NCBI GenBank assembly: GCA_946497925.1
Contig: CAMMMG010000002.1
Span: 398-64,397, forward strand
Direction: 5' to 3'
DNA length: 64,000 nt
From: an uncultured Mycoplasmatota bacterium
Lineage (GTDB): Bacteria > Bacillota_I > Bacilli_A > RF39 > UBA660
Shown: piece by piece, positions 1 through 44,167 of the stretch
Layout: each line of letters begins with the position of its first letter
Numbering within the stretch: the stretch's first letter is position 1
The notes under the pieces: model-generated
What the model was told of the DNA's origin: nothing
Seen by the model: only the letters and a program-made list of their open reading frames with translations
The model's database searches: none
Translations under genes and position numbers: made by a program

Positions 1-1
1 T

Positions 2-382: not shown

Positions 383-397
383 TGGTTATTTTTAAGT

Positions 398-512
398 GAG
401 ACATTTTCACTAATTTTTAACGTGTATAACTATAATATTATATTTATATTTAGTGGGACATTTTTACTTATTTTTGAAAATTAAAACGAGACATTTTAAC
501 TAATTAATCACA
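398..512 (+). mobile_element. Putative transposon end: three dispersed ~21-nt direct repeats, terminus ...CACA
   Basis: The repeats are GAGACATTTTCACTAATTTTT (398-418), GGGACATTTTTACTTATTTTT (455-475) and GAGACATTTTAACTAATTAAT (488-508). The last is followed by CACA at 509-512, directly abutting the stop codon of the next gene. Confidence 0.35.
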
Positions 513-3217: not shown

Positions 3218-3226
3218 AAATGCCTC

Positions 3227-5161: not shown

Positions 5162-5171
5162 AATGTACTCC

Positions 5172-7581: not shown

Positions 7582-7647
7582 GTACTCCTCCTTACTTTTG
7601 GTTACATACTTATTATATCATGTCTACATTTTATTGACAAACAATCA

Positions 7648-10152: not shown

Positions 10153-10161
10153 ATTAAGCTC

Positions 10162-11604: not shown

Positions 11605-11673
11605 AGATATTTCTCCTTTCTGAATTTATCTTATTTGTTTAAGAGTTTTATATTAAAACACTACAATCTAATC

Positions 11674-12423
11674 TTACCAATGATAACATGATAAATGTTT
11701 TTCTTTAACAATAGCACGAATATGTTCTAAATCCTTAGGTGTATCAACAGATAAACTTTCACTTTCTACTTCAACCATCTTTATTTTTTCACCATTTTCA
11801 AGAAAACGAATTTCATTAACATCCTCAACAATCTCATAAGGACCTTTTTTAGTACTAGCAAAAAAATCTAAAGCTTTTTTATTATATATTAATACACCAA
11901 CATGCTTATAATAATCATAATCCATACTTCCCTTTGGATAAGGAATAGGACTTCTTGAAAAGAACATAGCATAAGACAATTTATCAAATACAACCTTAAT
12001 ATTCGTAAAATCAACAGCTTCTACTGGATTTTTTATCTTAGTCATTAAATTAGCAACATAAACTTTATTACTATCTGGAAGAGACTCAGGAATTATCTTC
12101 TCAATCATTTTAGGATTAATTAAAGGTTCATCTCCATTAATAACAAGATATAAATCTGCCTTAACAGTTTCTGATACTTCCTGTACTCTTTCTGTACTAG
12201 TAGGATGTGTATTTTTAGTTAATATAACTTTAATATTTTTCTCTTTACATACTTTTTCAATTCTCTCATCATCTGTTGCAACATAAACATCATCAAGTCC
12301 TCTAACTTGTTTTACCTGACCATAAACCCACGCTACCATAGGCTCATCTTCAATTAATTCTAAAGGCTTACCTTTAAAGCGTGAAGATTGATAACGTGCT
12401 GGAATAACTGCCACTACTCTCAT
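11674..12423 (-). CDS. kdsB: 3-deoxy-manno-octulosonate cytidylyltransferase-like (CMP-Kdo synthetase family)
   Basis: VAVIPARYQSSRFKGKPL, VINGDEPLI, FFSRSPIPYP, HVGVLIY, GEKIKMVEV and VDTPKDLEHI align along the E. coli KdsB sequence as I recall it. Confidence 0.8.
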   Translation of the reverse strand: MRVVAVIPARYQSSRFKGKPLELIEDEPMVAWVYGQVKQVRGLDDVYVATDDERIEKVCKEKNIKVILTKNTHPTSTERVQEVSETVKADLYLVINGDEPLINPKMIEKIIPESLPDSNKVYVANLMTKIKNPVEAVDFTNIKVVFDKLSYAMFFSRSPIPYPKGSMDYDYYKHVGVLIYNKKALDFFASTKKGPYEIVEDVNEIRFLENGEKIKMVEVESESLSVDTPKDLEHIRAIVKEKHLSCYHW

Positions 12424-12437
12424 ACTTTCTCTTCCTC

Positions 12438-14045
12438 CTAATCAATATTTTTAGATGGGGTCAATGTTTTAATTAACATCTTCTCTTGATATTTCTTTAT
12501 ATTTCTTTCCATCGTTGAATTTAAATTATCAATATAATTCTTATCAAGTAAATAAGCAATATCACTTTGATAAAAATTTTCTTCCATACAAGAAGTAAAA
12601 CCATCAAAGCCTGCTAAAACAACATTTTTAACATTTGCATGACTTAAAATATTCAAACAAACTAATAGAGCTGAATCAGAAACTCCATCAAGTTTAGACA
12701 ATGAATTTCTATAATCAAAAATAAGAGTGTTTTCATTATCTTCAATACTAATATTAGAAGTAATCATTTTAATATCATCAGGAGTTAAATCATCACAAGA
12801 TTCCTGATATCTTTTTCTATTACTATAAAACACTGCATTATGCTTATGTAGATTAGGATTATTAATAGTAATAACGAAACAATTAGAATTATCTATATAA
12901 TTATCCAACTGTTCTTGATAAGTTATAATACTCTTACCAGGACCAATCAAAATAACTTCTTTTTCTTTAACTAAATCAGATAACCTTTCATAAGAAGCAT
13001 CATCTAAATATGTATGATCATTATAAATTTGATATAGTTCCTCAATATAAGCGGAATCATATTCTGTCTTTTTCTGTTCACTAATCATCTGAACAACTTT
13101 ATGAATATCACTACTACTAAGCATTCTCTTATTTAATAAATATAAGATATATGATGGATGGCAAGCATAGATAGCAGATAAATAATATGGTAAAGAATAA
13201 CCCCAGGGATTTTCACTTTTAATCTTTTCTAAAATATTATCTGAAGCTTCTAATAATGGTGATAATGAATAATTTTTTCCTTCTTTTTCATTTAAATAAT
13301 TGGCAATAAGCTCAGTAGGTAAATTACCAGCTCCTCTTCCCATTCCATAAATAGAACTATCAATAACTATATTTCTATCTTCAGAAGTATTTTCTATAAA
13401 AGCAAGAGCATTTGCAAAAGCCATTTGTAAATTATTATGCACATGAAATGCTAATTTAGTTTCAGCCTTTAAATTTTCATCAAATAACTTTGATAAATAA
13501 ATAACATCTTGTGGAGTCATTTGCCCAAAAGTATCTACAATTGCTAATCCTTCTAAATCAAGTTCTTCATTACAAATACGAATCATTTCTCTAATCTCTT
13601 CTTCAGTATAACCCAATATAACTGTAGGCTGCAAAAACAAACGATACCCTTTTCTTCTAATTTCCTTAGCATATTCAATTGCCTTTGGTAAACTTTTCTT
13701 ATGAAAAGACATTCTTAATATATTATCACTATTACTGCATAAAGGTAAATTTTCAATATTATATTTCTCCCCTAATAACATTAATGTATATTGATTTTCC
13801 TCAGTATTAGCAATTAAATTCTGTTCTTCTAACTCTTCCATTCTTCTATATTCAGTTCTATCAACAGAGTATTCTTCTTTAGTATCCATTAAATAACCAC
13901 ATTCTATTAACTCAATCTTTGCCTCTTCTAGATAATTTATTAATTGTTTAATATCGTCATAACCAAACTCATTATCATTAACATAGCCACCATCCCTTAA
14001 AGTACAATCTAATATCTCTATTTTTCTCATTTTAAACTTCCTCAC
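12438..14045 (-). CDS. Fusion: HMGL-like (DRE-TIM) pyruvate aldolase domain + DUF115/MptE-like domain
   Basis: The N-terminal part has ILDCTLRDGGY and HVHNNLQMAFANALA (metal-binding H-x-H). The C-terminal part has VILIGPGKSI and SALLVCLNILSHANVKNVVLAGFDGF, typical of the DUF115 (Maf/MptE-like) fold. Confidence 0.6.
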   Translation of the reverse strand: MRKFKMRKIEILDCTLRDGGYVNDNEFGYDDIKQLINYLEEAKIELIECGYLMDTKEEYSVDRTEYRRMEELEEQNLIANTEENQYTLMLLGEKYNIENLPLCSNSDNILRMSFHKKSLPKAIEYAKEIRRKGYRLFLQPTVILGYTEEEIREMIRICNEELDLEGLAIVDTFGQMTPQDVIYLSKLFDENLKAETKLAFHVHNNLQMAFANALAFIENTSEDRNIVIDSSIYGMGRGAGNLPTELIANYLNEKEGKNYSLSPLLEASDNILEKIKSENPWGYSLPYYLSAIYACHPSYILYLLNKRMLSSSDIHKVVQMISEQKKTEYDSAYIEELYQIYNDHTYLDDASYERLSDLVKEKEVILIGPGKSIITYQEQLDNYIDNSNCFVITINNPNLHKHNAVFYSNRKRYQESCDDLTPDDIKMITSNISIEDNENTLIFDYRNSLSKLDGVSDSALLVCLNILSHANVKNVVLAGFDGFTSCMEENFYQSDIAYLLDKNYIDNLNSTMERNIKKYQEKMLIKTLTPSKNID

Positions 14046-31301: not shown

Positions 31302-31327
31302 TGTTAATAATTACCTATCCTTTTTTA
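31292..31327 (+). terminator. Hairpin terminator at the convergent ltaS-like/htpG junction
   Basis: GGATAAGTAAT-gttaata-ATTACCTATCC followed by TTTTTT. Confidence 0.5.
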
Positions 31328-33211
31328 TTTAGCAAGTAACTCACTAATTAAATTACTTATTTCAGTTGGATTATCTAAACTCATTCCTTCTATAAGTCTA
31401 GCTTCTGCATATAGTATTTTACTATATTTCTCTAATGTCTCATAATCTTTATTTTCATATAAAGATTTTAGTTTATCAGCAATAGGATGATTTTCATTAA
31501 TCTCCATAACAGTATTTGCCTTAACTCCAGTATCTGTTGGCATTGCATCCATTACTTTTTGCATTTCTACTGAAACATCACCTTTACTAGTTAAACATAC
31601 AGGATGATTCTTTAAACGATGAGTAAACTCTACTTCATTAACACCATTATTTAGAGCACCATGCATCTTAGTAAACATATCTTTATATTCTTCATTTACC
31701 TTCTTTAATTCTTCTTTTTCTTCATCACTTTCTAAATTAGCATCACTACTTGCTACATTAACAAAGTTTTTCTCTTTATAGTTCATCATTACTTTAAAGA
31801 CAAATTCATCTAAGTAATCAGTTAAATATAAGATATCTACTCCCTTTTCTTTAGCACTTTCAACTTGTGGTAATAAATCTATCTTATCTATAGTTTCACC
31901 ACAAGCATAGTAAATTGTCTTATCATCTTCACTCATATTAGAAACATATTCTGAAAGTGTAACCATTTTCTTCTCTTTAGATGAATAGAAAAGTAATAAG
32001 TCTTGTAATGTCTCTTTTGCCATACCATAAGACTCATAAATACCTACTTTAAGTTGCATTCCAAAGTCTTTAAAGAACTTCTCATAATTTTCTCTATCGT
32101 TTTTAAGCATTTTTTCCAGTTCTTTCTTAATCTTAGATTCAAGACTCTTAGCGATAGATTTAATTTGATAATTATCTTGTAGTGTTTCTCTTGATATATT
32201 TAAAGATATATCTTCACTATCAACAATACCTTTAACAAAACTAAAGTAATCAGGTAAAAGATCAGAACATTTATCCATGATTAGAACACCTTTAGAATAA
32301 AGTTCAAGTCCTTTCTCATAGTCTTTAGAATAATAATTATATGGAGCATGACTTGGTATAAATAAAAGAGTTGTATATGAACATCTTCCTTCTACTTCAC
32401 TACGTATTACTTTTAAAGGTGCTTCATAGTCATAGAACTTATCTGTATAGAAAGAATTATAATCTTCATCTTTTACACTACTCTTCCCTTTCTTCCAAAT
32501 AGGAACCATACTATTTAGTGTTTTATCTTCTATTTTTTTCTCTTCTTTATCATCTTTTTTAGTAGTAGTCTCTACTTCCATTTTTATAGGATAAGAGATA
32601 TAATCAGAATATTTCTTAACTAATCTAAGAAGAGCATAGTCTTCTAAATATTCATCATAATTATTATCTTCATTATTCTCTTTTAAATGTAAAATAATCT
32701 TAGTACCGTGCTTTTCATAATCTACTTCTTCAATAGAATATCCATCAGCACCTCTTGATACCCAACGATAAGCTTTATCACTGTCATAGGCCTTACTAAT
32801 TACTTCTACTTCATCACTTACCATAAAGCTAGAGTAAAATCCTACACCAAACTGTCCAATAATAGCCATATTTTTATCATCAGACATTTTTTCTTTAAAT
32901 AAAAGAGAACCACTCTTAGCGATTGTACCTAAATTATTTTCAAGTTCTTCTTCAGTCATACCAATACCATTATCAATAATAGTTAAGGTTCTATTATCTT
33001 TATCAGGAATAAGTCTAATCTCTAAGTCTTTTTTCTTAACTTTAATCTTTTTGTTAGTAAGTGATTCATAATAAAGTTTATCTATAGCATCACTTGCATT
33101 AGAGATTAACTCACGTAAAAATATCTCCTTATTAGTATAAATAGAATTAATCATTAAATCTAATAACTTTTTAGATTCTGCTTTAAATTGTTTTTTCTTC
33201 AAATTAATCAC
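31325..33211 (-). CDS. htpG: Molecular chaperone HtpG (Hsp90)
   Basis: FLRELISNASDAIDKL, IGQFGVGFYS, 628 aa. It has a GTG start. Confidence 0.95.
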   Translation of the reverse strand: MINLKKKQFKAESKKLLDLMINSIYTNKEIFLRELISNASDAIDKLYYESLTNKKIKVKKKDLEIRLIPDKDNRTLTIIDNGIGMTEEELENNLGTIAKSGSLLFKEKMSDDKNMAIIGQFGVGFYSSFMVSDEVEVISKAYDSDKAYRWVSRGADGYSIEEVDYEKHGTKIILHLKENNEDNNYDEYLEDYALLRLVKKYSDYISYPIKMEVETTTKKDDKEEKKIEDKTLNSMVPIWKKGKSSVKDEDYNSFYTDKFYDYEAPLKVIRSEVEGRCSYTTLLFIPSHAPYNYYSKDYEKGLELYSKGVLIMDKCSDLLPDYFSFVKGIVDSEDISLNISRETLQDNYQIKSIAKSLESKIKKELEKMLKNDRENYEKFFKDFGMQLKVGIYESYGMAKETLQDLLLFYSSKEKKMVTLSEYVSNMSEDDKTIYYACGETIDKIDLLPQVESAKEKGVDILYLTDYLDEFVFKVMMNYKEKNFVNVASSDANLESDEEKEELKKVNEEYKDMFTKMHGALNNGVNEVEFTHRLKNHPVCLTSKGDVSVEMQKVMDAMPTDTGVKANTVMEINENHPIADKLKSLYENKDYETLEKYSKILYAEARLIEGMSLDNPTEISNLISELLAK

Positions 33212-33235
33212 TCTTCTTTCTTATTTACATTAAGT

Positions 33236-33277
33236 AGAATAACACTAGTGTTAGCAAATGTCAATAACGAGTGCTAG
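33236..33277 (-). promoter_or_regulatory. htpG promoter (TTGACA-17-TATTCT) overlapped by a half-degenerate CIRCE-like inverted repeat
   Basis: The plus strand at 33251-33277 reads TTAGCAAAT-N9-GAGTGCTAG, against the CIRCE consensus TTAGCACTC-N9-GAGTGCTAA (6/9 + 8/9). The -35 lies inside the N9 spacer. Confidence 0.4.
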
Positions 33278-33442
33278 AAAAATTAGGAATTTATATTCTT
33301 TTTCTTTACTTGCTTTAAATATGACATAGAAATAATATTCTTCACCAATAGTAAAAAGAACAGAATGTGATTATCCTGTTCTTAGCACAACATAAGAGAA
33401 AACAATACTTAAACTGCTCTTCTAGTTAGTTAAGGTCTTCTC

Positions 33443-33829
33443 TTATCTTTCTAAATTATCTACTGGTAATATTATTCCAATTTCACCTTTAGTTTCTCTT
33501 GCCTTTTGCCAACAAGAACTAACATTAAGTCCACCATCTGGTAGCCAAGCCATAATAATATTAACGATAGTTGGTAAAAGGAAAACTAATATAGCAGCGG
33601 CTATTTGGGATATAAGCTTTCTAATAAAGTGTTTTTGATCAGGATCAGTTATAACTTTAATAAGTGTAAGTACTAAACTAATAATTAATATTATTGGAAC
33701 TGCTATACAAATAATATCAAATGCAGTTTGTGTAAGTGATAAAATGTTAGCTAGTGCATAATCACTACAAGCATCTGCTGTTGCTAAAACATATACCATC
33801 TTAACTACCTCCTTTTGTCTTTTTCTCAC
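33443..33829 (-). CDS. Small membrane protein
   Basis: 128 aa with 3 hydrophobic helices. It overlaps the upstream methyltransferase gene by 29 nt. Confidence 0.4.
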   Translation of the reverse strand: MRKRQKEVVKMVYVLATADACSDYALANILSLTQTAFDIICIAVPIILIISLVLTLIKVITDPDQKHFIRKLISQIAAAILVFLLPTIVNIIMAWLPDGGLNVSSCWQKARETKGEIGIILPVDNLER

Positions 33830-34418
33830 TAACAGCTATTCCATCACCAATATCATAAATTGTTGTATTATAGTTGTCATTATCTTTTAGAAAAGCTATA
33901 TAGTCTTTAATTTTCCTTACTATTCCTCTTACATTTCTACTTTTTATTTCTTTTTCATTCTTATGAACTAGACCATGAAAATACATATTATCAGTAATTA
34001 TATAACCACTTTCTTTTAAGTTTTTTTCAAAGAGTTCAAAGAATTTAATATTTTGAGCTTTCGCTGCATCGATGAAAATCAAGTCAAATTTATCTTCTAT
34101 TTTTACTTTTAAAGCATCATTAAATATCAAGGTAATACGATCTTCTAAATTAAGTTTTTTTACATTTTTAACTGCTTCTAAATATCTTTCTTCGTCACGT
34201 TCTATTGTTGTGACTTTTAAATCAGGACTGCAAAGGCTCATCATAATAGCAGAATATCCTATAGCACTACCTATTTCTAAAACATTTTTTATTTGATGTT
34301 TAATAATAAATGTTGTTAAAAAGTCTATACCTTCGTTTTGCATAATAGGAATTTTGTTTTCTATGGCATATTCTTTTATTCGTTTTATATGCATATAGTT
34401 ATTATTTACCATATCCAA
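33801..34418 (-). CDS. Class I SAM-dependent O-methyltransferase (YrrM/TrmR-like)
   Basis: VLEIGSAIGYSAIMM and LIFIDAAKAQ. It occupies the conserved position after mltG. Confidence 0.7.
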   Translation of the reverse strand: MDMVNNNYMHIKRIKEYAIENKIPIMQNEGIDFLTTFIIKHQIKNVLEIGSAIGYSAIMMSLCSPDLKVTTIERDEERYLEAVKNVKKLNLEDRITLIFNDALKVKIEDKFDLIFIDAAKAQNIKFFELFEKNLKESGYIITDNMYFHGLVHKNEKEIKSRNVRGIVRKIKDYIAFLKDNDNYNTTIYDIGDGIAVSEKKTKGGS

Positions 34419-35467
34419 TCACCATTTTCTTTTAATTCTTGTACTTTTTCTTCATGTTCAGCGACAGTTTTAGTAAAGTAAACATTTCTGTTCTTATCTG
34501 CTACAAAATATAAATAATCACTAGAACTTGGATTAATCGCTGCGTCTATACTAGATAAAGATGGATTACTTATTGGTCCTACAGGTAGACGTCCTGCCAT
34601 TTCACTACTTCTAGTATTATAAGGATTATAAGTATTAAACATTTCACTAGTTAAATCAGAATTCATTTCTTCATCAAAGGCATAATAAGTAGTAACATCA
34701 CTTCCTAAATTCATACCTCTAGCTAATCTATTATTAAAAACACTAATAATCATTTTTCTATCTTCATCTTTTACTCCTTCAAGTTCAGCGATACTTGCTA
34801 AAGTCATAATACTATGTATATTACTATTTTCTAAAGTATCTTTATAAGGAGCTAGTTTTTCTTCCTCCTCATCTAATAGTTTTCTTATAATGGTTTCACT
34901 ATCTAGGTTATCTTTAGAAAATTCATATGTATCTGGGAAAAGATATCCCTCTAAAGGATAATATATATTCTCATCTAAAATACTATCTGTTAAAAACCAA
35001 TAATCATTTATTAAGTTTGTTAATAGTGTAGTATCTTTAATAGTAGAAAGGAATTCTTCACTAGTAATATCTGTATTTTTAGATATCATATTAGCATAGT
35101 CTTTAACACTTTCACCTTCTTTAAAAGTTAATCTAATAACATTGTCATTAGTATTACCTTTTTCTAGTTCTTCAACTATCTCTTTCATACTCATACTTTT
35201 AGTTAAAAGATATGTTGAGGCTTTCAGACTTCTTACATTATTTAATTTTAAATAAACTTTAAAAAAGAACTCATTTCTTATTAACCCTTTATCATAAAGT
35301 GTTTTTGCTATGTTAGTTGTACTCATTCCTTCTGGGATAACTACCTCAATATTTGCCTTACTACTTTTATCTATAGGACTAACATTATATTGATAATAAA
35401 TAAAACTACCAATCAATAGAACTCCTATAAAACCAAGTATTAAAGCTAATACACGCATTTTCTTCAT
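34406..35467 (-). CDS. mltG: Endolytic murein transglycosylase MltG (YceG family)
   Basis: It has an N-terminal TM helix and LEGYLFPDTYEF, ASIAELEG, YNTRSSEMAGRLPVGPISNP motifs. Confidence 0.9.
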   Translation of the reverse strand: MKKMRVLALILGFIGVLLIGSFIYYQYNVSPIDKSSKANIEVVIPEGMSTTNIAKTLYDKGLIRNEFFFKVYLKLNNVRSLKASTYLLTKSMSMKEIVEELEKGNTNDNVIRLTFKEGESVKDYANMISKNTDITSEEFLSTIKDTTLLTNLINDYWFLTDSILDENIYYPLEGYLFPDTYEFSKDNLDSETIIRKLLDEEEEKLAPYKDTLENSNIHSIMTLASIAELEGVKDEDRKMIISVFNNRLARGMNLGSDVTTYYAFDEEMNSDLTSEMFNTYNPYNTRSSEMAGRLPVGPISNPSLSSIDAAINPSSSDYLYFVADKNRNVYFTKTVAEHEEKVQELKENGDWIW

Positions 35468-35487
35468 ACTGCCAATCCCTTCTTTTA

Positions 35488-35796
35488 TTAAGCAGCGCTG
35501 CTTTCTGTATTAGTATCATTACCAACTTGAGCTTTAACTTCTTCTTGAATTGTTTCAAGAATTTTTTCAATTACCTGCCACTCTTTTTCTGTCTCAATAG
35601 GATCTAGTTTAGTAGAATCAGTTCCTGGATAATATACACTAGCATAAACTTGAACATTGCCCTTATCATCTAAACTATTATCTGTATAAACTATATAACT
35701 TTTATTAGTCTCTTCATTATCAAATGTAAATAAAACATCATATACTGTTTCTTTACCATATTCATCTTTTAATTTAAATTGATTTTTTCCATCCAT
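35488..35796 (-). CDS. DUF1292 (YrzB-like) protein
   Basis: YDVLFTFDNEETNKSYIVYTDN pattern and synteny with ruvX/mltG. Confidence 0.7.
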   Translation of the reverse strand: MDGKNQFKLKDEYGKETVYDVLFTFDNEETNKSYIVYTDNSLDDKGNVQVYASVYYPGTDSTKLDPIETEKEWQVIEKILETIQEEVKAQVGNDTNTESSAA

Positions 35797-35797
35797 A

Positions 35798-36214
35798 TTA
35801 TTTTCTCCTTTGATCTAAAAATGATTGTAATATAATTGTAGCAGCTACTTTATCTATAACTTTTTTACGTTTTTTTCTACTAGTATCTCCTTTTATTAGA
35901 ATAGCTTCAGCACTCTTAGTAGTTAGTCTTTCATCTTCTAAATAAATAGGGATATCTATATTAGACTCTAAAAACTCTTTAAATTCAAGAGTAGCTTCTG
36001 CTCTTTCACCTAAAGTATTATTCATATTTTTAGGCAATCCTAGAACTAAAGCTTCAACATTCAAAGACTCTACAATAGATTTTAACTCATCTAAACAGTC
36101 ATTTGGATTATTATCATGACGTAAGACTTCATAAGATGATGCAATTAAACCTGTTTTATCACTAATAGCAAGGCCAATAGTTTTAGTACCTAAATCTAGA
36201 CCTAAATATCTCAT
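35798..36214 (-). CDS. ruvX: Holliday-junction resolvase-like pre-16S rRNA nuclease RuvX (YqgF)
   Basis: MRYLGLDLGTKTIGLAISD...DERLTT. Confidence 0.9.
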   Translation of the reverse strand: MRYLGLDLGTKTIGLAISDKTGLIASSYEVLRHDNNPNDCLDELKSIVESLNVEALVLGLPKNMNNTLGERAEATLEFKEFLESNIDIPIYLEDERLTTKSAEAILIKGDTSRKKRKKVIDKVAATIILQSFLDQRRK

Positions 36215-36459
36215 TATTTATTTAACATACTAGTAAGTAGAACTTCAACTATCTTACTTCTATCTATTGTTTTTATCTTACTTCTAGCATCTTGATAACT
36301 TGAAATATAACCTAAGTCACCGCTTATTAAGTAACCTACTATTTGGTCTATTGGATTATAACCTCTTTCTTTTAGAGAGTTATATACTTCAAGTAATGTT
36401 TTATGAACCTTTGCTTGGTCATTACTAACTAGTTTAAATAATCTTGTTTTATCATCCAT
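36214..36459 (-). CDS. IreB-family regulatory phosphoprotein (UPF0297/YrzL)
   Basis: GYNPIDQIVGYLISGDLGYISS. Confidence 0.8.
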   Translation of the reverse strand: MDDKTRLFKLVSNDQAKVHKTLLEVYNSLKERGYNPIDQIVGYLISGDLGYISSYQDARSKIKTIDRSKIVEVLLTSMLNK

Positions 36460-36613
36460 ATTATCACCTCACTACAATTACTAAAATTAGTTTAGCATTT
36501 TTTTAAAGTAAGTTCAAGTAAAAGAGAAAAAAAGCATATAGATAGCACTTTTACAATTTCTTTTTATAATTGTTGATTGTTTCTACTGAACTAATAACTT
36601 TTTTGAGAATCTT

Positions 36614-36647
36614 ATAAACAAAAAATAGATGGAGTTTACCATCTATT
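36614..36647 (-). terminator. Terminator of the 658-aa gene, built on a duplicated ABC-operon terminator
   Basis: The minus strand reads AATAGATGG-TAAACT-CCATCTATT followed by TTTTGTTT. Confidence 0.6.
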
Positions 36648-36656
36648 CTGCAACAC
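36641..36656. repeat. 16-nt direct repeat, left copy (atctattctgcaacac)
   Basis: It is identical to 39035-39050, where the same string is the last codons plus stop of the ABC gene and its terminator arm. Confidence 0.8.
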
Positions 36657-36685
36657 GATTTAATTAGTATGACTTTAAATGATTC

Positions 36686-38662
36686 TTATATACTATTTAC
36701 ATTTTTATTTCTCATACTACTATAACATCTCATATTTTTAAGAATTTCATCTCTTTGTTTTACCAAGTCATAATATATTTTTGTTTGTTCTGTTTCTTGA
36801 TTAGAATTTAAAGAAGATACTAGGTTATAGAACTTCATTCCTCCAAAATGTTCATTAAATATTGCAAATAAAGAATTAAGATCATCAAAATTGTCTTTAC
36901 CTACTTCGTTAAGTATTATTTGAATATTTCCATTTCTTCTACTTTTTATAATGGCATCTTTAAATTCATGGTAAAAATCTTTTGCTAAAAAAGAAGAACT
37001 ATCATAACTAGTTGAATTGTAAATTTTATGCTCATGAGGATTACCAAAAACATAATTTCCTTTTTGGTACATTTTTCTACAAATATCTTTAGCAATTAAT
37101 TCATTAATGATTTCACTATATAATTCATATTCTCTTTTACTATTATCAACGTTTAAAGTATCTATTGGTTCTATTTTGTCTTGATTAATCTTTCCAGTAA
37201 AATAGTCCCATCCGCATATTATAGAATAATCATTTCCATCAACATATTCTAAAAACAATTCATATAAATGATTTAATTCATGAATTATTTTTTGATCCAT
37301 TAAATCCATATCATATAAGTTAAAATTTACTATTACAAGTGAATACAAACTGTAGTAATTATTTTTTAAAATAACATTAGGATTAACACAAGCACCACTT
37401 GTTTCATATAATTTAGCATTGAAACAATCTTCTTTATCTAATAAAATGAGTGAATTAATCATTTCTCTAATTTCTTTATTTGTACTAATACTATTAAAAT
37501 ATTCAATATTAAAATCATTTATAAGTGTATCCCGAATTTCAAAAAAACGTTTAACTCTCTGTTCATCAGGCCATATTTTTTTCACCTCAGGATTATCTAT
37601 ATAATCTTCATAACTACCAGATAAGTTTATTCCATTCATATTAAAATATTTTATTCTTGCTTTTTTTGTTTCTTCAACACTCCAAGAATTAGTATCACCT
37701 TTTTCTAATTCTTTGGTTTTTTCTTCTTTAAAACAGTCTAGGCCACAACTTCCAATTAGAGAAAAGCCAAATAAGAATTTAATATATGGGTCTAGATTAT
37801 ATTCTTTGGTGCTATCAGTAAAAAATTCTTCCAAACCTGTTCTTTTATCTAGAGGAATTAAATCAATGTTCTCTTTAATAAGCATTTGATAATACTTATT
37901 CATTAAAACATTATTTAGGTTATTTGTTTTTTCAATATATTCATAATATTTTGAAAATTTTTCCATATAAGAAGTATATTCTTCTTTTTTTATCAAATAT
38001 ATTTCTAATAACTCTTTTAATTGTTGAAATTTTGTATCTTTTAACTTTTCTTCAAAGTTGCTCTCATCAATACTCGAATCTATTTTTTGTAGTAATTCTT
38101 TTGTTTTATTAAATTTTTCTAAATATTCTTTTTGACAATTTGAACTATCAAAATAGTATTCTATTTTATTTTTTATCCAAGCAGGTAGATTTTGATATTT
38201 TAATGGTATAGTTTTACTATCACATATACTAATAAATTCTTCTGAAGTTAGAGATGGCAAATACATCTTTATTAAATTATAGCCATTATCTATAAATATT
38301 TTTAGACGTTGTTCTTCTGTTAACTTATATAAATCATAAAATTCTCTATACTTATGAATAGGCATAAGAGTTTCATATTTAAATGAATAGTTTTGGAATA
38401 AATCTTCCTTTGTTAAATTTGTTTTATTTTCTAATAGAATTTTAGTGATTAATTCATTAGATGTATTATCTTCTATTTTATTTAGAGTTAAAAAAATTTG
38501 ATCAGGAGTTTGATAGCCAATATACATTGCATTTTTAAATGCTTCTTCTATTTCTGATTTTTTTTCTTCTCCATAAAAATCAACAAAAGCTTCTATATAA
38601 GTAGATAATCCTTTATTTAACTCTTCTTGACAATTTAATAATTTTAATAATCTCTCATTCAT
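36686..38662 (-). CDS. Hypothetical 658-aa cytoplasmic protein with HExxH...E (gluzincin-like) motif
   Basis: IIHELNHLYE, then YSEIINELIA ~40 aa later. No signal peptide or TM helix, and no other family was recognised. Confidence 0.4.
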   Translation of the reverse strand: MNERLLKLLNCQEELNKGLSTYIEAFVDFYGEEKKSEIEEAFKNAMYIGYQTPDQIFLTLNKIEDNTSNELITKILLENKTNLTKEDLFQNYSFKYETLMPIHKYREFYDLYKLTEEQRLKIFIDNGYNLIKMYLPSLTSEEFISICDSKTIPLKYQNLPAWIKNKIEYYFDSSNCQKEYLEKFNKTKELLQKIDSSIDESNFEEKLKDTKFQQLKELLEIYLIKKEEYTSYMEKFSKYYEYIEKTNNLNNVLMNKYYQMLIKENIDLIPLDKRTGLEEFFTDSTKEYNLDPYIKFLFGFSLIGSCGLDCFKEEKTKELEKGDTNSWSVEETKKARIKYFNMNGINLSGSYEDYIDNPEVKKIWPDEQRVKRFFEIRDTLINDFNIEYFNSISTNKEIREMINSLILLDKEDCFNAKLYETSGACVNPNVILKNNYYSLYSLVIVNFNLYDMDLMDQKIIHELNHLYELFLEYVDGNDYSIICGWDYFTGKINQDKIEPIDTLNVDNSKREYELYSEIINELIAKDICRKMYQKGNYVFGNPHEHKIYNSTSYDSSSFLAKDFYHEFKDAIIKSRRNGNIQIILNEVGKDNFDDLNSLFAIFNEHFGGMKFYNLVSSLNSNQETEQTKIYYDLVKQRDEILKNMRCYSSMRNKNVNSI

Positions 38663-38964
38663 TTTAACCTCTCTAATAAATTTATTAAATCTTTATAATT
38701 ATTAGGATATATTCCTTTACCATGATATCTATCCTTATGATTTTTATTAGTTACTATTATTTCAAATTCTTCTATATCTATGGCATTTATAGACCCATAT
38801 TCTTTTTTAAAAGTATATAGTATCTTTTTTAATTCTTCTAGAAATGTATTATCTACTTTATAAGTATTATTATTCATATAGCATTTTTTATTATTATAAT
38901 CAATAAGGGCATTTATTCTATTGTAACTACCACTATTAATATTTATTTCAATTTCATCTATCAT
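38659..38964 (-). CDS. Hypothetical 101-aa protein, translationally coupled (ATGA overlap) to the 658-aa gene
   Basis: There is a 4-nt overlap with the downstream gene. No family was recognised. Confidence 0.4.
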   Translation of the reverse strand: MIDEIEININSGSYNRINALIDYNNKKCYMNNNTYKVDNTFLEELKKILYTFKKEYGSINAIDIEEFEIIVTNKNHKDRYHGKGIYPNNYKDLINLLERLK

Positions 38965-39034
38965 CTATATCACCGATTATAATATAGCAAATATATTGTC
39001 AATTCTCAATATAATATTAAAAGAATAGATAATT

Positions 39035-39050
39035 ATCTATTCTGCAACAC
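39035..39050. repeat. 16-nt direct repeat, right copy (atctattctgcaacac)
   Basis: See 36641-36656. Here it covers the ...SVAE* codons of the ABC gene and the 5' arm of its hairpin AGAATAGATAATTATCTATTCT. Confidence 0.8.
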
Positions 39051-40848
39051 TTTCAAATTGTGAATTGTATAGTTCTGCATAGAAACCATTTTTCTTAAGT
39101 AATTCATCATGTGTTCCTTGTTCTACTATATCTCCATCTTTCATTACTAATATCAAATTAGCATTTTTAATAGTAGAAAGTCTATGAGCGATAACAAAAC
39201 TTGTTCTTCCTTCCATTAAATTATCCATCGCTTCTTGAATTAATTGTTCCATTCTAGTATCTACACTACTAGTCGCTTCATCCAAAATCAATATTTTTGG
39301 ATCTTTAAGAATAACTCTTGCAATTGTTAGTAATTGTTTTTGACCAGCAGAAACATTATCACTTTCTTCATTTAGAATCATATCATAGCCTTCTGGCATT
39401 GTTCTAATAAAATGATCAACGTGAGATGCTATCGCTGCATCATATACGGCTTCATCGTTAGCATTCAAATTACCATAACGGATATTTTCTTTGATAGTAT
39501 CACTATAAAGCCAAGTGTCTTGTAAAACCATACCAAAAAGACTTCTTAAATCATCACGTTTCATATCTTTTATATCAACTCCATCTATTTTAATAGAACC
39601 AGAGTTAACATCATAGAATCTCATTAATAGTTTTACAATAGTTGTCTTACCTGCACCAGTTGGTCCAACGATAGCAATCTTTTGGCCCTTATGCATTGTT
39701 GCATTAAAGTCGTTGATAATAATTTTATTTTTATTATAACCAAACTTAACATCTTCAAAAGTAACTGTATTACCAAGTTTTTCTAAGTCATATGTTACTT
39801 TCTTAACTTCAGGAACTTCTTCTTCCTCTTCTAAGAATTCAAAGACTCTTTCAGCTGAAGCTACCATTGATTGAATCATATTACCAATTTGGGCAATTTG
39901 AGAAAGTGGGTTCATAAAGTTTCTGATATACTGTGTAAATGATAAGATATCACCTACTTCTATTTTATTCTTTATAACTAAATATCCTCCTAAAATAGAT
40001 ATTAATACATAACCAATATTACCAATAAAGTTCATAATTGGATGCATCATACCAGAGAAGAATTGAGCTCTCCATGCTGAATTATATAACTTTTCATTAG
40101 TTTTATTAAAGTCTTCTATTGTTTTTTCTTCTCCGTTAAATAATTTAATAACAGTATGACCAGAATAAGCTTCTTCTATAGTACCATTTATATCACCTAA
40201 ATACTTTTGTTGATTTAAAAAGTATTTTTGAGAGTGTTTCATAATAAAACTCATCATGAATAAAGCGATAGGTACTATTACTAGTGTTACTAAAGTCATT
40301 AGAGGACTTATTGTTAACATCATTATAACTACACCAATTAAAGTTGTAATAGAAGTTAACAGATGTGATATTGATTGATCTAAGCTCTGTGATAAGGTAT
40401 CAACATCATTAGTAACTCTTGATAATATTTCTCCTGTTGTTTTACTTTCAAAATAAGAAAGTGGTAATTTATGCATTTTATGAGATATTTGTTCCCTTAA
40501 ATTAAAGGTAACTTTTTGGTTTACACCACTCATAATAAAAGCTTGTAGGTAAGAGAAAATTGCACTGACTATATATAGAGATAGTAAAGTTAAAAGAATA
40601 GTTCCTACTTTAGAAAAATCAATTCCATTAGTAGTTCCCATTACTTTACCTAATAGTCCATTAAATATTTCAGTTGTTGCTTCTCCTGATATTTTAGGTC
40701 CAATTATTGAGAAAACAGCACTACTAATAGCAAAGATAACAACAAATGCTAAACTTATTTTATATGTACCTAAATACTTAAGTAATTTCTTTAAAGTTCC
40801 TTTAAAGTCTTTAGCTTTACTTACTGCTCCCATTCCTCCTCTAGGCAT
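39037..40848 (-). CDS. ABC exporter half-transporter (TMD-NBD), heterodimer partner
   Basis: It has 6 TM helices, Walker A GPTGAGKTT, signature VSAGQKQLL and Walker B ILILDEATS. Confidence 0.9.
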   Translation of the reverse strand: MPRGGMGAVSKAKDFKGTLKKLLKYLGTYKISLAFVVIFAISSAVFSIIGPKISGEATTEIFNGLLGKVMGTTNGIDFSKVGTILLTLLSLYIVSAIFSYLQAFIMSGVNQKVTFNLREQISHKMHKLPLSYFESKTTGEILSRVTNDVDTLSQSLDQSISHLLTSITTLIGVVIMMLTISPLMTLVTLVIVPIALFMMSFIMKHSQKYFLNQQKYLGDINGTIEEAYSGHTVIKLFNGEEKTIEDFNKTNEKLYNSAWRAQFFSGMMHPIMNFIGNIGYVLISILGGYLVIKNKIEVGDILSFTQYIRNFMNPLSQIAQIGNMIQSMVASAERVFEFLEEEEEVPEVKKVTYDLEKLGNTVTFEDVKFGYNKNKIIINDFNATMHKGQKIAIVGPTGAGKTTIVKLLMRFYDVNSGSIKIDGVDIKDMKRDDLRSLFGMVLQDTWLYSDTIKENIRYGNLNANDEAVYDAAIASHVDHFIRTMPEGYDMILNEESDNVSAGQKQLLTIARVILKDPKILILDEATSSVDTRMEQLIQEAMDNLMEGRTSFVIAHRLSTIKNANLILVMKDGDIVEQGTHDELLKKNGFYAELYNSQFESVAE

Positions 40849-43048
40849 TTTCTAACTCCTCCTTTGAAAGTTGACTCTCAGCAATCTCACGATAAACTGA
40901 ACAACTCTTGATTAAGTCGTGATGAGTTCCAATACCAACTACTTTACCTTCATCAAGTACAACTATTTGATCTGCTTTTAGTATGGTATTAATACGTTGA
41001 GCGACGATAAAGATAGTTGAGTTTTTAGCATATTCATATAAAGCTTTACGAAGTTCAAAATCAGTCTTAAAGTCAAGGGCAGAGAAGCTATCATCGAATA
41101 TGTAAATTTCTGGATCTTTAGCGATTGCTCTTGCAATAGATAGTCTTTGTTTTTGCCCTCCTGATACATTAGTACCTCCTTGACTAATACGACTTTTATA
41201 TCCATCTTTTTTAGCTAAGATAAACTCTTCTGCTTGGGCAATACGTGCTGCTTCTATCATCTTCTCATCAGACATATCTTCATCACTATATTTAATATTA
41301 GATTCTATTGTTCCAGAGAATAATACTCCTTTTTGAGGAACATAACCGATTCTTTCATGTAAAGCTTTCTGTGTTACATCTTTAACATTAATACCATCAA
41401 CTAATATTTCTCCTTTAGTAACATCATAAAGTCTTGGTATTAAGTTAATAAGGGTACTTTTACCACTACCAGTAGAACCAATAAAGGCAGTTGTTGTTCC
41501 AGGTTTTGCTGTAAATGTTACATCGGTAATAACATCTTCATCACTATCAGGATATCTAAAACTAACATTTTTGAACTCTACTAAACCTTTAATTCTCTTA
41601 CTGTATGTTTTAGGTTTTTTAGGATCTTTAATAGATTCATCTGTTTCTAATACTTCCATAATACGGTTAGCAGAAACATTAGCACGTGGTAACATAATAG
41701 AAAACATTGATATCATTAAGAATGCCATAATTATTTGCATTGAGTATTGAATAAATGCTAACATATCTCCAACTTGTAATAAGCCTTCATCAATTTTATG
41801 AGCACTAGTCCAAATAATTAGAACTACAATACCATTCATAATAAACATCATACCTGGTAACATGAAGTTCATTACTCTATTAACAAATAGGTTTGTTTTC
41901 TTTAAGTTAGTATTCGCAACGCTGAATCTTTCTTCTTCATATTTTTGATTAGAGAAAGCTCTAATTACTGGAATACCTGTAATAATTTCTCTTGTTACTT
42001 GGTTTAGTTTATCTATTAGTTTTTGTACTTTCTTAAATTTAGGCATAGTAAGGGCAAATAAAGTAAATATTAATGTTAAAACACAAACTATTCCTAACCA
42101 AATAATATAAGTCATTGATGGTGCTGTCTCAAGTACTTTACCAACGGCACCGATTGCAACTATTGGAGCATAGATAAATAGTCTTAGAGTCATAATAATC
42201 ATCATTTGTACTTGTTGAATATCATTAGTACTTCTAGTAATTAATGATGATATACCTATTTCTTTATACTCTGCTGTACCAAAGTTTAAGACTTTCTTAA
42301 ATTCTTTCTTTCTAACACGTTTAGATAAACCTGAACCAACTCTTGCTCCTAATAGTACTGTTAGTATTGTTGCAGTTACACTTATTAGAGATAGTCCTAA
42401 CATCTTAAGTCCTGTAATTATAATATAGTTAGTTTGAATAGCATCAGTATTAAGTCCTACTTCAATATATTCTTGCTTAATCGCTGCAACAGCACTTTGA
42501 CTTATAATGCTATCTGGCATTGCAGAAAACTGCTCATTAATAGATTTTCTCATTTCATTAAGTTCATTACTAGGTAACATTTTAATGATATCTATTATAG
42601 CCATATCTTGCATAGACTCTGGCATATCTTTCTTAATCTCATTTTGAATGTTAACTGCTTCCTTCTCTTTACTAGTTAACATGTAATCTACAAGAATAGC
42701 TTTCTCTAAGTCACTATTAGATTTTTCTTCATCTTTAATGACATAAACTGGCTCTTCACTTAAGATATCATAGTCATGTTCATCACTTTTTTCAGTAACC
42801 AACTCATAATTAGATAAAATCTCTTCTTTTTCTTTATCACTTACAAAAAGTAAAATCTCATCTAATTTAGATTTTCTAACTACTTCAGGATTAACTTCTT
42901 CTATACCACCTTGTTGCACTCCTACATTAATAATATTAGAAGTGTACTCTGGTATAGTTAAATCACAGTTCGCTTGAACTATTAGTAGTAAAATAATTAG
43001 AATAACTGATAAAATATTATCTTTTAAATATCTAAATATCTTTAACAT
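40841..43048 (-). CDS. ABC exporter half-transporter (TMD-NBD) with ~170-aa insertion between TM1 and TM2
   Basis: GSTGSGKST, VSGGQKQRLS, IYIFDDSFS. A long hydrophilic segment (aa ~30-205) follows the first TM helix. Confidence 0.85.
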   Translation of the reverse strand: MLKIFRYLKDNILSVILIILLLIVQANCDLTIPEYTSNIINVGVQQGGIEEVNPEVVRKSKLDEILLFVSDKEKEEILSNYELVTEKSDEHDYDILSEEPVYVIKDEEKSNSDLEKAILVDYMLTSKEKEAVNIQNEIKKDMPESMQDMAIIDIIKMLPSNELNEMRKSINEQFSAMPDSIISQSAVAAIKQEYIEVGLNTDAIQTNYIIITGLKMLGLSLISVTATILTVLLGARVGSGLSKRVRKKEFKKVLNFGTAEYKEIGISSLITRSTNDIQQVQMMIIMTLRLFIYAPIVAIGAVGKVLETAPSMTYIIWLGIVCVLTLIFTLFALTMPKFKKVQKLIDKLNQVTREIITGIPVIRAFSNQKYEEERFSVANTNLKKTNLFVNRVMNFMLPGMMFIMNGIVVLIIWTSAHKIDEGLLQVGDMLAFIQYSMQIIMAFLMISMFSIMLPRANVSANRIMEVLETDESIKDPKKPKTYSKRIKGLVEFKNVSFRYPDSDEDVITDVTFTAKPGTTTAFIGSTGSGKSTLINLIPRLYDVTKGEILVDGINVKDVTQKALHERIGYVPQKGVLFSGTIESNIKYSDEDMSDEKMIEAARIAQAEEFILAKKDGYKSRISQGGTNVSGGQKQRLSIARAIAKDPEIYIFDDSFSALDFKTDFELRKALYEYAKNSTIFIVAQRINTILKADQIVVLDEGKVVGIGTHHDLIKSCSVYREIAESQLSKEELENA

Positions 43049-43656
43049 AAATCCTCCTTCTTAACACACCCATATTTTAAAATGTCTAATTGTTCATAAT
43101 AGTCTTTAAGTATCTCTTCATCAAGACTATCACTTTTTAACAACTTCATTAAAGTTACCATTAAAAGGTGCATATTAATGGCAAAAATTACTTCAATATG
43201 CTTTTTAGCATTATCATTAAGTAATTCTAAATTGATGTTAGGAATTAGTTCTTTAAGTAGTCTCTTGTCACGAAAACCAAAAGTTTTCTTAGACTCTTCC
43301 ATCATAGTAATATTTTCTAAAGATTTTTTTAAGAAATTAGTATTATTTTTTTTAAAGGAATTATAGATTTCTTTAATGTTATCTTGAAACATTTTAAAGA
43401 TATCTCCTTTATTTTTTATTAAATTCGTTTCCATATTATCAATCAGTACTTCTAAATACTGTTCTAGAAGATAAAAATATAAATCTTTCTTATCTTCAAA
43501 ATACATATAAAAACTTCCTCTAGAAATTGAAGCTTCTTTAATAATTCTATTAATGGATACATCATTAAAATTATTAAGAGAAAACTCTTTAAAGCTAGCA
43601 TCTATTAGTTTTTTCTTTTTTTCATCATTTAATCTTAGAAATGTATCACTAGGCAT
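43042..43656 (-). CDS. TetR/AcrR-family transcriptional regulator
   Basis: It has an N-terminal HTH, FSLNNFNDVSINRIIKEASISRGSFYMYFEDKKDLY. It overlaps the ABC gene by 7 nt. Confidence 0.85.
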   Translation of the reverse strand: MPSDTFLRLNDEKKKKLIDASFKEFSLNNFNDVSINRIIKEASISRGSFYMYFEDKKDLYFYLLEQYLEVLIDNMETNLIKNKGDIFKMFQDNIKEIYNSFKKNNTNFLKKSLENITMMEESKKTFGFRDKRLLKELIPNINLELLNDNAKKHIEVIFAINMHLLMVTLMKLLKSDSLDEEILKDYYEQLDILKYGCVKKEDLC

Positions 43657-43684
43657 AGGCTTCCCTCCTAACAGTCACTATATC

Positions 43685-43713
43685 ATTATATGTGACAAGT
43701 TGTCATATGTCAA
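43685..43713 (-). promoter_or_regulatory. Consensus promoter (TTGACA-17-TATAAT) with a 13-bp perfect palindrome in the spacer: candidate TetR operator
   Basis: The palindrome TGACAAGTTGTCA at 43693-43705 lies between the -35 (43708-43713) and the -10 (43685-43690). Confidence 0.55.
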
Positions 43714-43738
43714 CAAAAAATAAAAAAGTAAGTAAAAA

Positions 43739-44167
43739 TTACCTACTTAAACGATTTCTTCTTTTAAAAACTTTAGCACTTTTTCCTATACTATCGACTA
43801 CTCTTCTATTCATTTCATTTATTAGTGGAGAATCCAGTGCCTCTTCACCTATACTATCCAAGAATTGATGATATGAATGGGTTATTTTATATTGAGTTAG
43901 AAAAACAGCAAGATTCTCATCGGTTAAATTTCTAAGAAGAGCCTCTTTTTCTTGTCTTATTGTTCTGTAGCTTAATTGTAATATTTCATAACAAGTAGTA
44001 TCCTCAGTTGTTAAATTTGTAATGCGTGAAATAAAAGCTTTTTCATTTTCGATTGATATATCAGAAACTAACTCAACAGTTTTGACTGCTTCTATACATG
44101 GTACTGGTTCCTTATGGTCATAATAGTCATCTATTTTCTTTATTTGTTCTACTACTCTTGATTCCAT
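43739..44167 (-). CDS. Hypothetical protein, paralogue of the upstream ORF
   Basis: It shares blocks with 44186-44524: (CIEAVKTVELV / AIDYVTTLELI), (LTDENLAVFLTQYK / LTLDYLLLVISQFK) and (PLINEMNRRV / RPINEEMRKK). Confidence 0.4.
   Translation of the reverse strand: MESRVVEQIKKIDDYYDHKEPVPCIEAVKTVELVSDISIENEKAFISRITNLTTEDTTCYEILQLSYRTIRQEKEALLRNLTDENLAVFLTQYKITHSYHQFLDSIGEEALDSPLINEMNRRVVDSIGKSAKVFKRRNRLSR

Follow-up and report, generated by a model that had tools for sequence, protein, structure and literature searches.

Zincin-like metallopeptidase (MPTase) domains are carried by the polyvalent proteins of phages and conjugative elements (Iyer, Burroughs, Anand, de Souza, and Aravind 2017, PMC5512222). 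The core of these mobile-element metallopeptidases consists of a sheet, a helix bearing the HExxH motif, a variable insert, and a helix bearing a glutamate (PMC5512222). The locus described here is compared with these domains, with the gluzincins, with type II toxin-antitoxin and protease defense pairs, and with integrative elements that insert at the 3' ends of genes. It lies in a stretch of 64,000 nucleotides (nt) from an uncultured Mycoplasmatota bacterium (contig CAMMMG010000002.1), which we call the window (64 kb) and whose positions serve as coordinates; all genes of the locus are on the minus strand. Between an ATP-binding cassette (ABC) exporter operon and ireB, two copies of the 16-mer ATCTATTCTGCAACAC flank a cassette of exactly two genes, which encode a small protein of 101 amino acids (aa) and a large protein of 658 aa with an HExxH motif. 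We propose, with moderate confidence in the reading as a whole, that positions 36657 to 39034 are an accessory operon exchanged horizontally among chicken-gut Bacilli related to "Candidatus Onthousia," that the operon encodes a zincin-like large product and a coupled small partner, and that it arrived together with a duplication of the 3' part of the ABC gene.

A word-indexed search found more than 200 homologs of the large protein, all of constant length, and an exhaustive search resolved 455 representative clusters that fall into size classes of ~650 aa and ~585 aa. Pfam, NCBIfam, PADLOC, and PHROGs held no match for either cassette protein, and PADLOC-DB v2 returned no family at an E value of ≤1 for either one, in agreement with the expectation of the first-pass annotation that neither would belong to a known housekeeping family. 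That annotation had also described the 658-aa product as a cytoplasmic protein with an HELNH...E motif. No hydrophobic segment of the membrane-spanning type is present in either cassette protein, and the HExxH...E motif proved to be the invariant core of the large family. Across 93 diverse sequences the invariant columns are F26, Y30, H461, E462, N464, H465, E468, G484, E517, and Y553; the near-invariant columns include G31-E32, W485, R510, Y512, E513, and N520-E521.

The AlphaFold2 (AF2) model of the large protein, made with the family alignment, is mostly helical and has a predicted local distance difference test (pLDDT) score of 93.8 and a predicted template modeling score of 0.88. In the model, strands at residues 425-427, 430-433, 436-439, and 441-446 precede the HExxH helix (449-468), which is followed by a three-strand insert, a loop, and a helix (513-533) with the block RxYELFNEIINE. 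As in zincins, the HExxH motif (HELNH in all 93 sequences) is thus predicted to lie on an alpha-helix, and a small beta-sheet is predicted on the N-terminal side of the active-site helix, going by the order of secondary-structure elements alone. Candidates for the third metal ligand are the invariant E517 and the near-invariant E513 and E521, all on helix 513-533, and the invariant E468 on the HExxH helix; in the model, helix 513-533 is a candidate carrier of this ligand. The predicted order of sheet, HExxH helix, insert, and Glu helix fits a zincin core, and it is from the motif and this order that we infer a protease. We propose for the large protein the role of a metal-dependent hydrolase of the cytoplasm, with a zincin-type endopeptidase as the likeliest kind; H461 and H465 would act as metal ligands, E462 as the general base, and E517 (or E468) as the third ligand.

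Several searches weigh against this assignment. When 22 members of the large family were run singly against Pfam at an E value of ≤10, only scattered chance-level matches of single members were found. PDB profile searches with the full-length family and with its 405-545 core gave nothing meaningful, and Foldseek searches of PDB and BFVD with the full-length model produced no match (best E values of 0.38 to 0.49, template modeling [TM] scores of <0.15). Profile or fold similarity to an established zincin family was therefore found neither with Pfam nor with PDB profiles nor with Foldseek. The lack of detectable similarity to any peptidase family or structure would also be expected if HExxH were not a protease site and the protein were a metal-binding or nonenzymatic scaffold or a hydrolase acting on a nonprotein substrate. 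Two further observations point the same way: a conserved helical domain of ~400 residues has its own invariant motif (F26, Y30-G-E32) with no role assigned to it, and in one clade a gene for an ASCH (RNA-binding-type) protein overlaps the large-gene stop. However, both histidines, the motif glutamate, and the glutamate on the downstream helix are invariant, a conserved arginine and tyrosine lie beside that downstream glutamate, and the sheet-helix-insert-helix order is the one expected of a zincin hydrolase. We regard a nonprotease role as decidedly improbable.

The MPTase domains of polyvalent proteins (Pfam MPTase-PolyVal; ArdC C-terminal domain) resemble the large protein in having the HExxH helix after a small beta-sheet, a glutamate on a later helix, and a variable insert between the two helices. 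Unlike those domains, the present module is 650 aa long with a large conserved helical N-terminal region, has no Pfam match to MPTase-PolyVal or any other zincin model at an E value of ≤10, and is nearly always encoded by a stand-alone chromosomal gene with a dedicated small partner. One member of the family nevertheless occurs in a setting like that of the polyvalent proteins. It forms residues 1066 to 1716 of a 3,054-aa protein, P0271 (L093/L094, positions 4748 to 13912), which contains the whole large module at 35% identity (E value of 5e-108) along with two further HExxH segments, an N-terminal region that reads as hydrophobic from its sequence, and a C terminus weakly similar to a small alarmone synthetase (8vx3, E value of 0.0015). 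The gene for P0271 lies 2.2 kb downstream of one for a VirD4/TraG coupling protein of a type IV secretion system. The P0271 locus has no open reading frame (ORF) of the small family, and Pfam gave no match at all to P0271. By its architecture and setting, P0271 looks like a conjugative-element polyvalent effector as defined in PMC5512222. It is the only representative in which the module was found inside a multidomain conjugative-element protein; the other ~450 clusters are stand-alone.

The gluzincins (thermolysin M4, M1, M3/M32, anthrax lethal factor M34, and the clostridial neurotoxin light chains M27) share with the large protein an HExxH motif with a downstream glutamate and N-E pairs on the Glu helix. 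H465 and E517 are 52 residues apart, a spacing that lies in the range of lethal factor and the neurotoxins. No solved gluzincin matches the large protein in sequence or fold, however, and E468, one turn past H465, is also invariant, which leaves either E468 or E517 as the putative third ligand. The string HELNH is also the motif of botulinum neurotoxin (BoNT) type C (PMC5983246). Membership in the BoNT-type M27 family was ruled out, as there is no sequence or fold similarity, and the shared string is a coincidence at the level of the motif only. In the tests made, neither a family model nor a fold matched, and the module could be assigned to no specific known family; it is best described as an HExxH module that is highly divergent and depends on a partner. 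The large product belongs to a family that occurs only in this lineage and had not been described before, and its whole-protein fold is likewise undescribed. If the large protein is a zincin, it represents a new, highly divergent branch whose partner subunit looks obligate.

The family of the small protein comprises 151 clusters of ~100 to 103 aa, with invariant residues that include E66, H81-G-x-G84, P87, and Y90. Its AF2 model, again made with the family alignment, has a pLDDT score of 94.6 and the order beta4-alpha-beta3-alpha. Searches with 39 members singly against Pfam at an E value of ≤10 gave scattered chance-level matches only, and a PDB profile search with the family gave nothing meaningful. 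The structural comparison of both proteins suggested in the first-pass annotation left the large one without a relative in PDB or BFVD and found the small one weakly similar to Mago nashi, a subunit of the exon-junction complex, which was the best solved Foldseek match to the small model (query TM score of 0.56, E value of 2e-3). Both have a flat antiparallel sheet against one face of which two helices pack; however, sequence identity is ~10%, and the small protein is bacterial and 40 residues shorter, so the modeled resemblance is probably only topological. Protease inhibitors of the Streptomyces subtilisin inhibitor (SSI)/sermetstatin type were far behind, with weak TM scores of 0.4 to 0.49. 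Both families have hundreds of members and very confident predicted structures but no annotation, and no structural relative of the large one was detectable.

The coupling of the two genes in the window, which was noted in the first-pass annotation, consists of an ATGA overlap, and the predicted co-occurrence in distant genomes was also found. In scans of one genome per species, the large family was confirmed in 68 loci (here and below, L numbers denote loci), and a small ORF lies directly upstream of the large gene and overlaps it in 50 of 65 species loci, even at the greatest distance (25% identity). The other 15 have no adjacent small ORF: 4 are at contig edges, 3 have only fragments of the large gene, 1 has a divergent 92-aa candidate, and 7 (L113, L116, L118, L121, L124, L154, and L160) have an intact large gene (HExNHxxE) with no small gene within 600 nt upstream. 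These seven are from metagenome-assembled genomes (MAGs), in which the small gene could lie elsewhere in the genome; four of the seven large genes keep the exact RxYELxNExxNE pattern. The pairwise identities of the two proteins correlate (r = 0.81 for 48 loci), with means of 0.33 for the large protein and 0.34 for the small one. Both genes are under purifying selection, with ratios of nonsynonymous to synonymous substitution rates (dN/dS) of 0.20 to 0.28 for the large gene and 0 to 0.20 for the small gene. Because of the translational coupling, the equal conservation, and the codivergence, we suggest that the small protein would bind the large one as a stoichiometric regulatory or adaptor/targeting subunit and that the complex would cleave a cytoplasmic protein or peptide target.

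The same arrangement raises the possibility of a toxin-antitoxin or abortive-infection pair, in which a toxic HExxH protease would be held by the small protein as its antitoxin and released upon phage infection or loss of the cassette. Like type II toxin-antitoxin and protease defense pairs (RosmerTA and ImmA/IrrE-type Zn-peptidase modules), the cassette has a small upstream gene translationally coupled to a larger putative enzyme, and it is accessory, horizontally transferred, and present in some congeners and absent in others. The frequent pseudogenization of the large gene, the occurrence of the large module without the small one in the effector-like P0271, and the weak resemblance of the small fold to protease inhibitors would also be in line with such a pair. 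Unlike those systems, the module has no PADLOC match, its small protein has no DNA-binding fold, and the small protein is conserved as much as the large one, evolving no faster and with a lower dN/dS. Whereas the toxin of such a pair would not be kept without its antitoxin, since losing an essential antitoxin would be lethal, seven of the MAG loci have a motif-intact large gene with no small gene nearby. The module was also not found in defense islands, phages, or plasmids. Given the intact solo large genes and the fusion in a conjugative element, the small protein is unlikely to be an antitoxin that the large one cannot do without, and we consider a toxin-antitoxin pair doubtful. The first-pass annotation had likened the architecture to that of toxin/immunity or antiphage pairs, and such a role found no support here, given the lack of a PADLOC match, the lack of relatives among phages, plasmids, and IMG/VR, the housekeeping neighbors in other lineages, and at least seven solo large genes.

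Both families are confined to ~65 species of uncultured gut Bacilli. The titles of most records name uncultured Bacilli, Tenericutes, Mollicutes, or Erysipelotrichaceae MAGs or bins of CAG:605, CAG:822, "Ca. Coprosoma," or "Ca. Ventrenecus"; ~10 records labeled Muribaculaceae, Clostridia, Clostridium, Clostridiaceae, or Sphaerochaetaceae are taken to be binning or labeling errors. Metatranscriptome contigs, which give neither strand nor transcript ends, cover the large gene about as deeply as the ABC genes, although DNA carryover is possible. The large gene is split or fragmentary in 8 of the 65 species loci (L110, L138, L145, L152, L155, L156, L159, and L161), which are either pseudogenes or MAG assembly errors. 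Within clades the pair is in stable synteny among core genes. It lies in the order GH25, ylmH (opposite strand), pair, ASCH, one opposite-strand ORF, and mnmA in 16 loci; in the order rpoB, rpoC, pair, two small ORFs, and smc in 9 loci; and in another clade in the order HTH, DUF4097, pair, two HI0933-like genes, and lepA. Elsewhere the downstream genes are lepB, pyk, ackA, fmt, hrcA, or wzy. None of the neighborhoods in other lineages looks like a defense island, and the proximity to such islands that the first-pass annotation had raised was not seen.

Stable synteny beside core genes in several clades is also what would be expected of an ordinary cytoplasmic peptidase of the lineage (for example, an oligopeptidase of peptide turnover or nutrition) with an accessory subunit, moved about by recombination. 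One copy per genome, purifying selection, and metatranscriptome coverage fit such a peptidase as well, and the size and helical content of the large protein recall the large cytoplasmic gluzincin oligopeptidases of M3/M32. However, the module is present in only ~65 species representatives and in three of seven species of the genus, is recurrently pseudogenized, shows recent between-species transfer and deviant base composition, has no fold match to neurolysin-like or other solved peptidases, and was recruited into a giant conjugative-element protein. We regard an ordinary peptidase as an unlikely account of the pair. A core function is argued against by the restriction to ~65 species, the presence in only three of the seven nearest species, the eight split loci, and the horizontal exchange within the genus; the cassette is an accessory, transferable two-gene operon with its own promoter-like site.

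The module is patchily distributed, mobile, and decaying, and it has been recruited into a conjugative-element effector; on these grounds we weakly infer that it may act in conflicts between genomes. Such a role seems somewhat more likely than a metabolic one, with a plain peptidase nearly as likely. In its most developed form, which we consider speculative and rather unlikely, the pair would be a new two-component protease-based conflict module with an unseen fold. The substrate of the large HExxH protein would be a protein of an invader, or one of the host upon delivery by a conjugative element within a giant effector; gating or targeting would fall to the small Mago-like subunit; and the chromosomal copies in small-genome gut Bacilli would serve as a defense or countereffector spread between species by recombination in the flanks. 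Two results tell against a conflict role. GenBank phages, PLSDB plasmids, and IMG/VR contained no relatives, and the neighbors rpoBC, smc, ylmH, mnmA, lepA, pyk, ackA, fmt, and hrcA in other lineages weaken the case. None were found in JGI metagenomes either, in a search for close relatives only, and with GenBank phages, PLSDB, and IMG/VR this led us to rule out a phage or plasmid origin. The hosts are uncultured gut Bacilli with small genomes, which we expect to have few accessory regions and in which few accessory functions are understood, and a module that is exchanged and apparently expressed offers a handle on their biology. Its presence in a giant conjugative-element protein hints at a target that would be of wider interest for plasmid-host conflict.

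The view of the first-pass annotation that the segment is an acquired cassette is borne out by empty sites, base composition, and the contrast between cassette and flanks. The G+C content is 19.2% in the small gene and 22.6% in the large gene, against 27 to 30% in the flanks. Loci from other species were fetched with the ABC orthologs, and the window proteins were then mapped onto them. Between the window and L001, nucleotide identity is 98.3 to 99.7% in the cassette, 89 to 90% in the ABC genes, 85% in ruvX, and 80% in mltG; between the window and L003, it is 96% in the cassette and 75% in mltG. Across the species compared, the cassette is 96 to 99.7% identical and the flanking genes are 75 to 95% identical. 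Because of the deviant G+C content and a cassette identity above that of the flanks, the cassette appears from these comparisons to be foreign, much younger than its carrier species, and exchanged between them. The sequencing runs that hold the window sequence are mostly labeled chicken-gut metagenomes. The pair is present in three of seven species representatives with ABC orthologs of at least 89% identity. Alleles with a single 16-mer at an empty site, as predicted, were found in L013 (98% identity to the 603-aa ABC protein) and L014 (94%), where the ABC stop is directly followed by GGTAAAYTCCATCTATTTTTG and where the terminator and flank after the stop are those that follow 16-mer copy 2 in the window. 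In run X2, an occupied 2.5-kb contig and a contig across the empty junction, again with a single 16-mer, come from the same sample.

The window has exactly two copies of the 16-mer, at 36641-36656 and 39035-39050, and no further one at up to two mismatches; its chance expectation is 0.06, and two copies were reached in none of 100 shuffles. When mismatches are allowed, the repeat grows to 25 nt at 84% identity. Both positions, the identity of one copy with the last codons and stop of the ABC gene (which ends ...ESVAE*), and the part of each copy in a hairpin arm are as the first-pass annotation had them in every detail. The left junction is identical in all occupied genomes (TAGAT / RATTATCTATTCTTTTAATA), and the right end of the cassette (...CATACTAATTAAAT) is also common to them, but the sequence beyond it varies. 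In L001 and L004, the right end is followed directly by the ireB promoter region, and a second 16-mer is missing. In the window, L002, and L171, it is followed by the 16-mer and the native terminator. In L164, which carries a second lineage of the cassette (large gene 82% identical in nucleotides), a decayed remnant of the ABC 3' end of ~170 nt (IAHRLSTIK..., ...YNSQFESV.E*) comes before a native-type terminator. In L163, a second ABC copy begins ~310 nt past the large gene and runs from about residue 363 to the contig end (>400 nt) at 95 to 97% identity to functional ABC genes. The duplication thus has no fixed length, being absent, 16 nt, ~170 nt, or >400 nt.

Because of the longer ABC remnants in L163 and L164, the 16 nt in the window appear to be the last relic of a displaced, duplicated ABC 3' end and not a short target-site duplication. 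The earlier claim of an insertion with a 16-nt duplication of the ABC end is therefore retained as to the origin of the repeat and given up as to a short duplication made at insertion. The alternative, a true target-site duplication left at the terminator hairpin by the insertion of a transposon-like or integrase-driven element, would explain the exact direct repeats around the insert and the single copy in the empty site, and a TnpB-like remnant lies near the same site in L003. It is contradicted by the longer remnants at the position of copy 2 in L163 and L164 and by L001 and L004, which have the cassette and no second copy. The cassette ORFs include no transposase or integrase gene, and the cassette has no terminal inverted repeats; to our knowledge, 16 bp also exceeds the duplications of known insertion sequence families. 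We consider a target-site duplication highly improbable. The junction series may instead be a clean natural example of a duplicated gene end that decays into a lookalike of a target-site duplication.

We propose that the cassette arrived just behind the stop codon of the ABC exporter gene by a recombination that duplicated the 3' part of that gene. A Campbell-type single crossover with a circular DNA carrying an ABC 3' segment and the cassette would give the L163 arrangement, later deletions would give the rest of the series, with the displaced copy decayed to 16 nt in the window, and recombination between the repeats would regenerate empty sites. The locus resembles 3'-end integrative elements (att-flanked islands and Campbell-type insertions) in that the direct repeats are the 3' end of the target gene, the target is left intact, the empty site has one copy, and relatives have a longer duplicated gene end. 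In contrast to such elements, it has no integrase or excisionase, is only 2.4 kb long with two cargo genes, and has a spread among congeners that could be explained by homologous recombination in the flanks. No ORF of the cassette is a site-specific recombinase, and neither product has a Pfam match. Three points count against this route of arrival. The Campbell-type model is drawn from two short metagenomic contigs, L163 and L164, and as the relatives are MAGs or short contigs, the L163 arrangement, like the split genes and the absence of small genes, may in part be an assembly effect. The breakpoint at about residue 363 of the 603-aa ABC protein, the simplest Campbell-type prediction, was sought and rejected; the identity profiles are mosaic throughout. 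Finally, a contig of run X1 (depth of 7) has no cassette and keeps both 16-mers 10 nt apart, with AGATTTTACC added where window position 36656 joins 39035; read along the genes, the sequence is ...GCAGAATAGAT GGTAAAATCT GTGTTGCAGAATAGAT GGTAAACTCC.... The arrangement resembles a tandem duplication of 26 nt or the scar left by a deletion, and neither a relic nor the Campbell-type model explains it. When the species genomes were searched for an allele with two closely spaced 16-mers, one unrelated match alone was returned.

The features of the locus are listed in Table 1. The perfect palindrome at the left end has a folding energy of -11.2 kcal/mol (z score of -2.6) with a T-run behind it and is composed of the ABC gene end and the first 13 nt of the cassette, with 16-mer copy 1 as its 5' arm; its G-C pairs are too few for the terminator scan to have called it. 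The terminator at the right end (-13.0 kcal/mol, z score of -3.5) is the sole terminator-like site called in positions 36400 to 39200, and this native terminator of the ABC operon now ends the cassette transcript. Copy 2 of the 16-mer begins 29 nt past the stop of the 658-aa gene. An overlapping TTGACA...TATAAT is found at the promoter-like site, which is kept in L001 to L004 and in L163. The four loci that share the conserved right end all have different downstream flanks. An Rfam scan of positions 33000 to 44000 gave no match.

Table 1. Features of the two-gene cassette and its junctions, in window coordinates
Feature	Position	Strand	Description
16-mer copy 1	39035..39050	-	Codons V-A-E, stop, and 2 nt of the 603-aa ABC exporter gene
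AT-rich palindrome, perfect, 9 bp, AGAATAGATAATTATCTATTCT then TTTTAATATT	39022..39043	-	Weak terminator-like hairpin
Promoter-like site, TTGAGA-17-TATATT with TG	38981..39009	-	Left end of cassette; consensus match only
Small gene, 101 aa	38659..38964	-	GGTGAT ribosome-binding site upstream
Large gene, 658 aa	36686..38662	-	Start overlaps small-gene stop (ATGA)
H461-E-L-N-H465-L-Y-E468 codons (HELNHLYE, residues 461-468)	37259..37282	-	Predicted helix 449-468
R510-x-Y-E513-L-x-x-E517-I-I-N-E521 codons	37100..37135	-	Predicted helix 513-533
Cassette right end, conserved (GAATCATTTAAAGTCATACTAATTAAATC)	36657..36685	-	Common to L001, L003, L004, and L164
16-mer copy 2	36641..36656	-	Read as the last relic of the displaced, duplicated ABC 3' end
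Native intrinsic terminator of the ABC operon	36622..36649	-	11 pairs and a T-run; copy 2 is the 5' arm

Upstream of the cassette are genes for ABC exporter half-transporters of 735 aa (43048..40841) and 603 aa (40848..39037), the latter with the Pfam domains ABC_membrane and ABC_tran. A functional link of the pair to the exporter, as in the processing of ribosomally synthesized and posttranslationally modified peptides or bacteriocins, was ruled out, as no ABC exporter lies beside the pair in other lineages. Downstream are ireB, identified with Pfam, and then ruvX, DUF1292, and mltG/YceG, which were named from the Pfam tags of the near-identical locus L004.

The slot behind the ABC gene is a hot spot of variation, as seen from its different contents in L003 and in L013 to L016. 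In "Candidatus Onthousia faecavium" (L015, 89%), it is occupied by an ABC-2 transporter pair, and in L003 the cassette is accompanied by 2.8 kb of extra genes, including two short ORFs that we take from their sequence to be the N terminus of an IS605-family TnpB. Slot contents in L003 (positions 7977 to 10822), L014 (7516 to 10401), and L164 (3090 to 4007) include a class-B-like sortase gene, a large membrane protein, and a glycosyltransferase, which points to repeated insertions at the site. In L016 (CASEDN010000118.1, positions 1 to 3530; 98% identity to the 603-aa ABC protein), the ABC gene is followed by a different hairpin and then directly by htpG. Compared with window positions 31325 to 39037, L016 has at this place none of the block formed by the pair, ireB, ruvX, DUF1292, mltG, an O-methyltransferase gene, and a 128-aa ORF (window 33.2 to 39.0 kb); the missing block lies elsewhere, or the contig is chimeric.

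Just one further gene recurs beside the pair in other genomes, the ASCH-domain gene (~130 aa), and the window lacks it. Twelve loci carry it immediately downstream; its start overlaps the large-gene stop by 4 nt in 10 of them (L100, L104, L105, L112, L114, L115, L117, L119, L120, and L008); in L005 and L109 it is nearby, and in one clade the three genes form an operon. In group C (L136, L137, L139, L143, L146, L152, and L154), the pair lies directly behind rpoB-rpoC on the same strand, before ORFs of ~100 aa and 76 aa and smc; such a pair is unusual in the position that follows rpoC. Tandem paralogs are found in L123 (positions 4089 to 7973), where a small gene stands between genes for large-family members of 517 aa and 667 aa. 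In L011 (positions 1718 to 4144), three to four tandem DUF1016/YhcG (PDDEXK nuclease-like) paralogs lie directly upstream of the pair, and a sortase and a very large Cna_B-repeat surface protein are encoded downstream of it.

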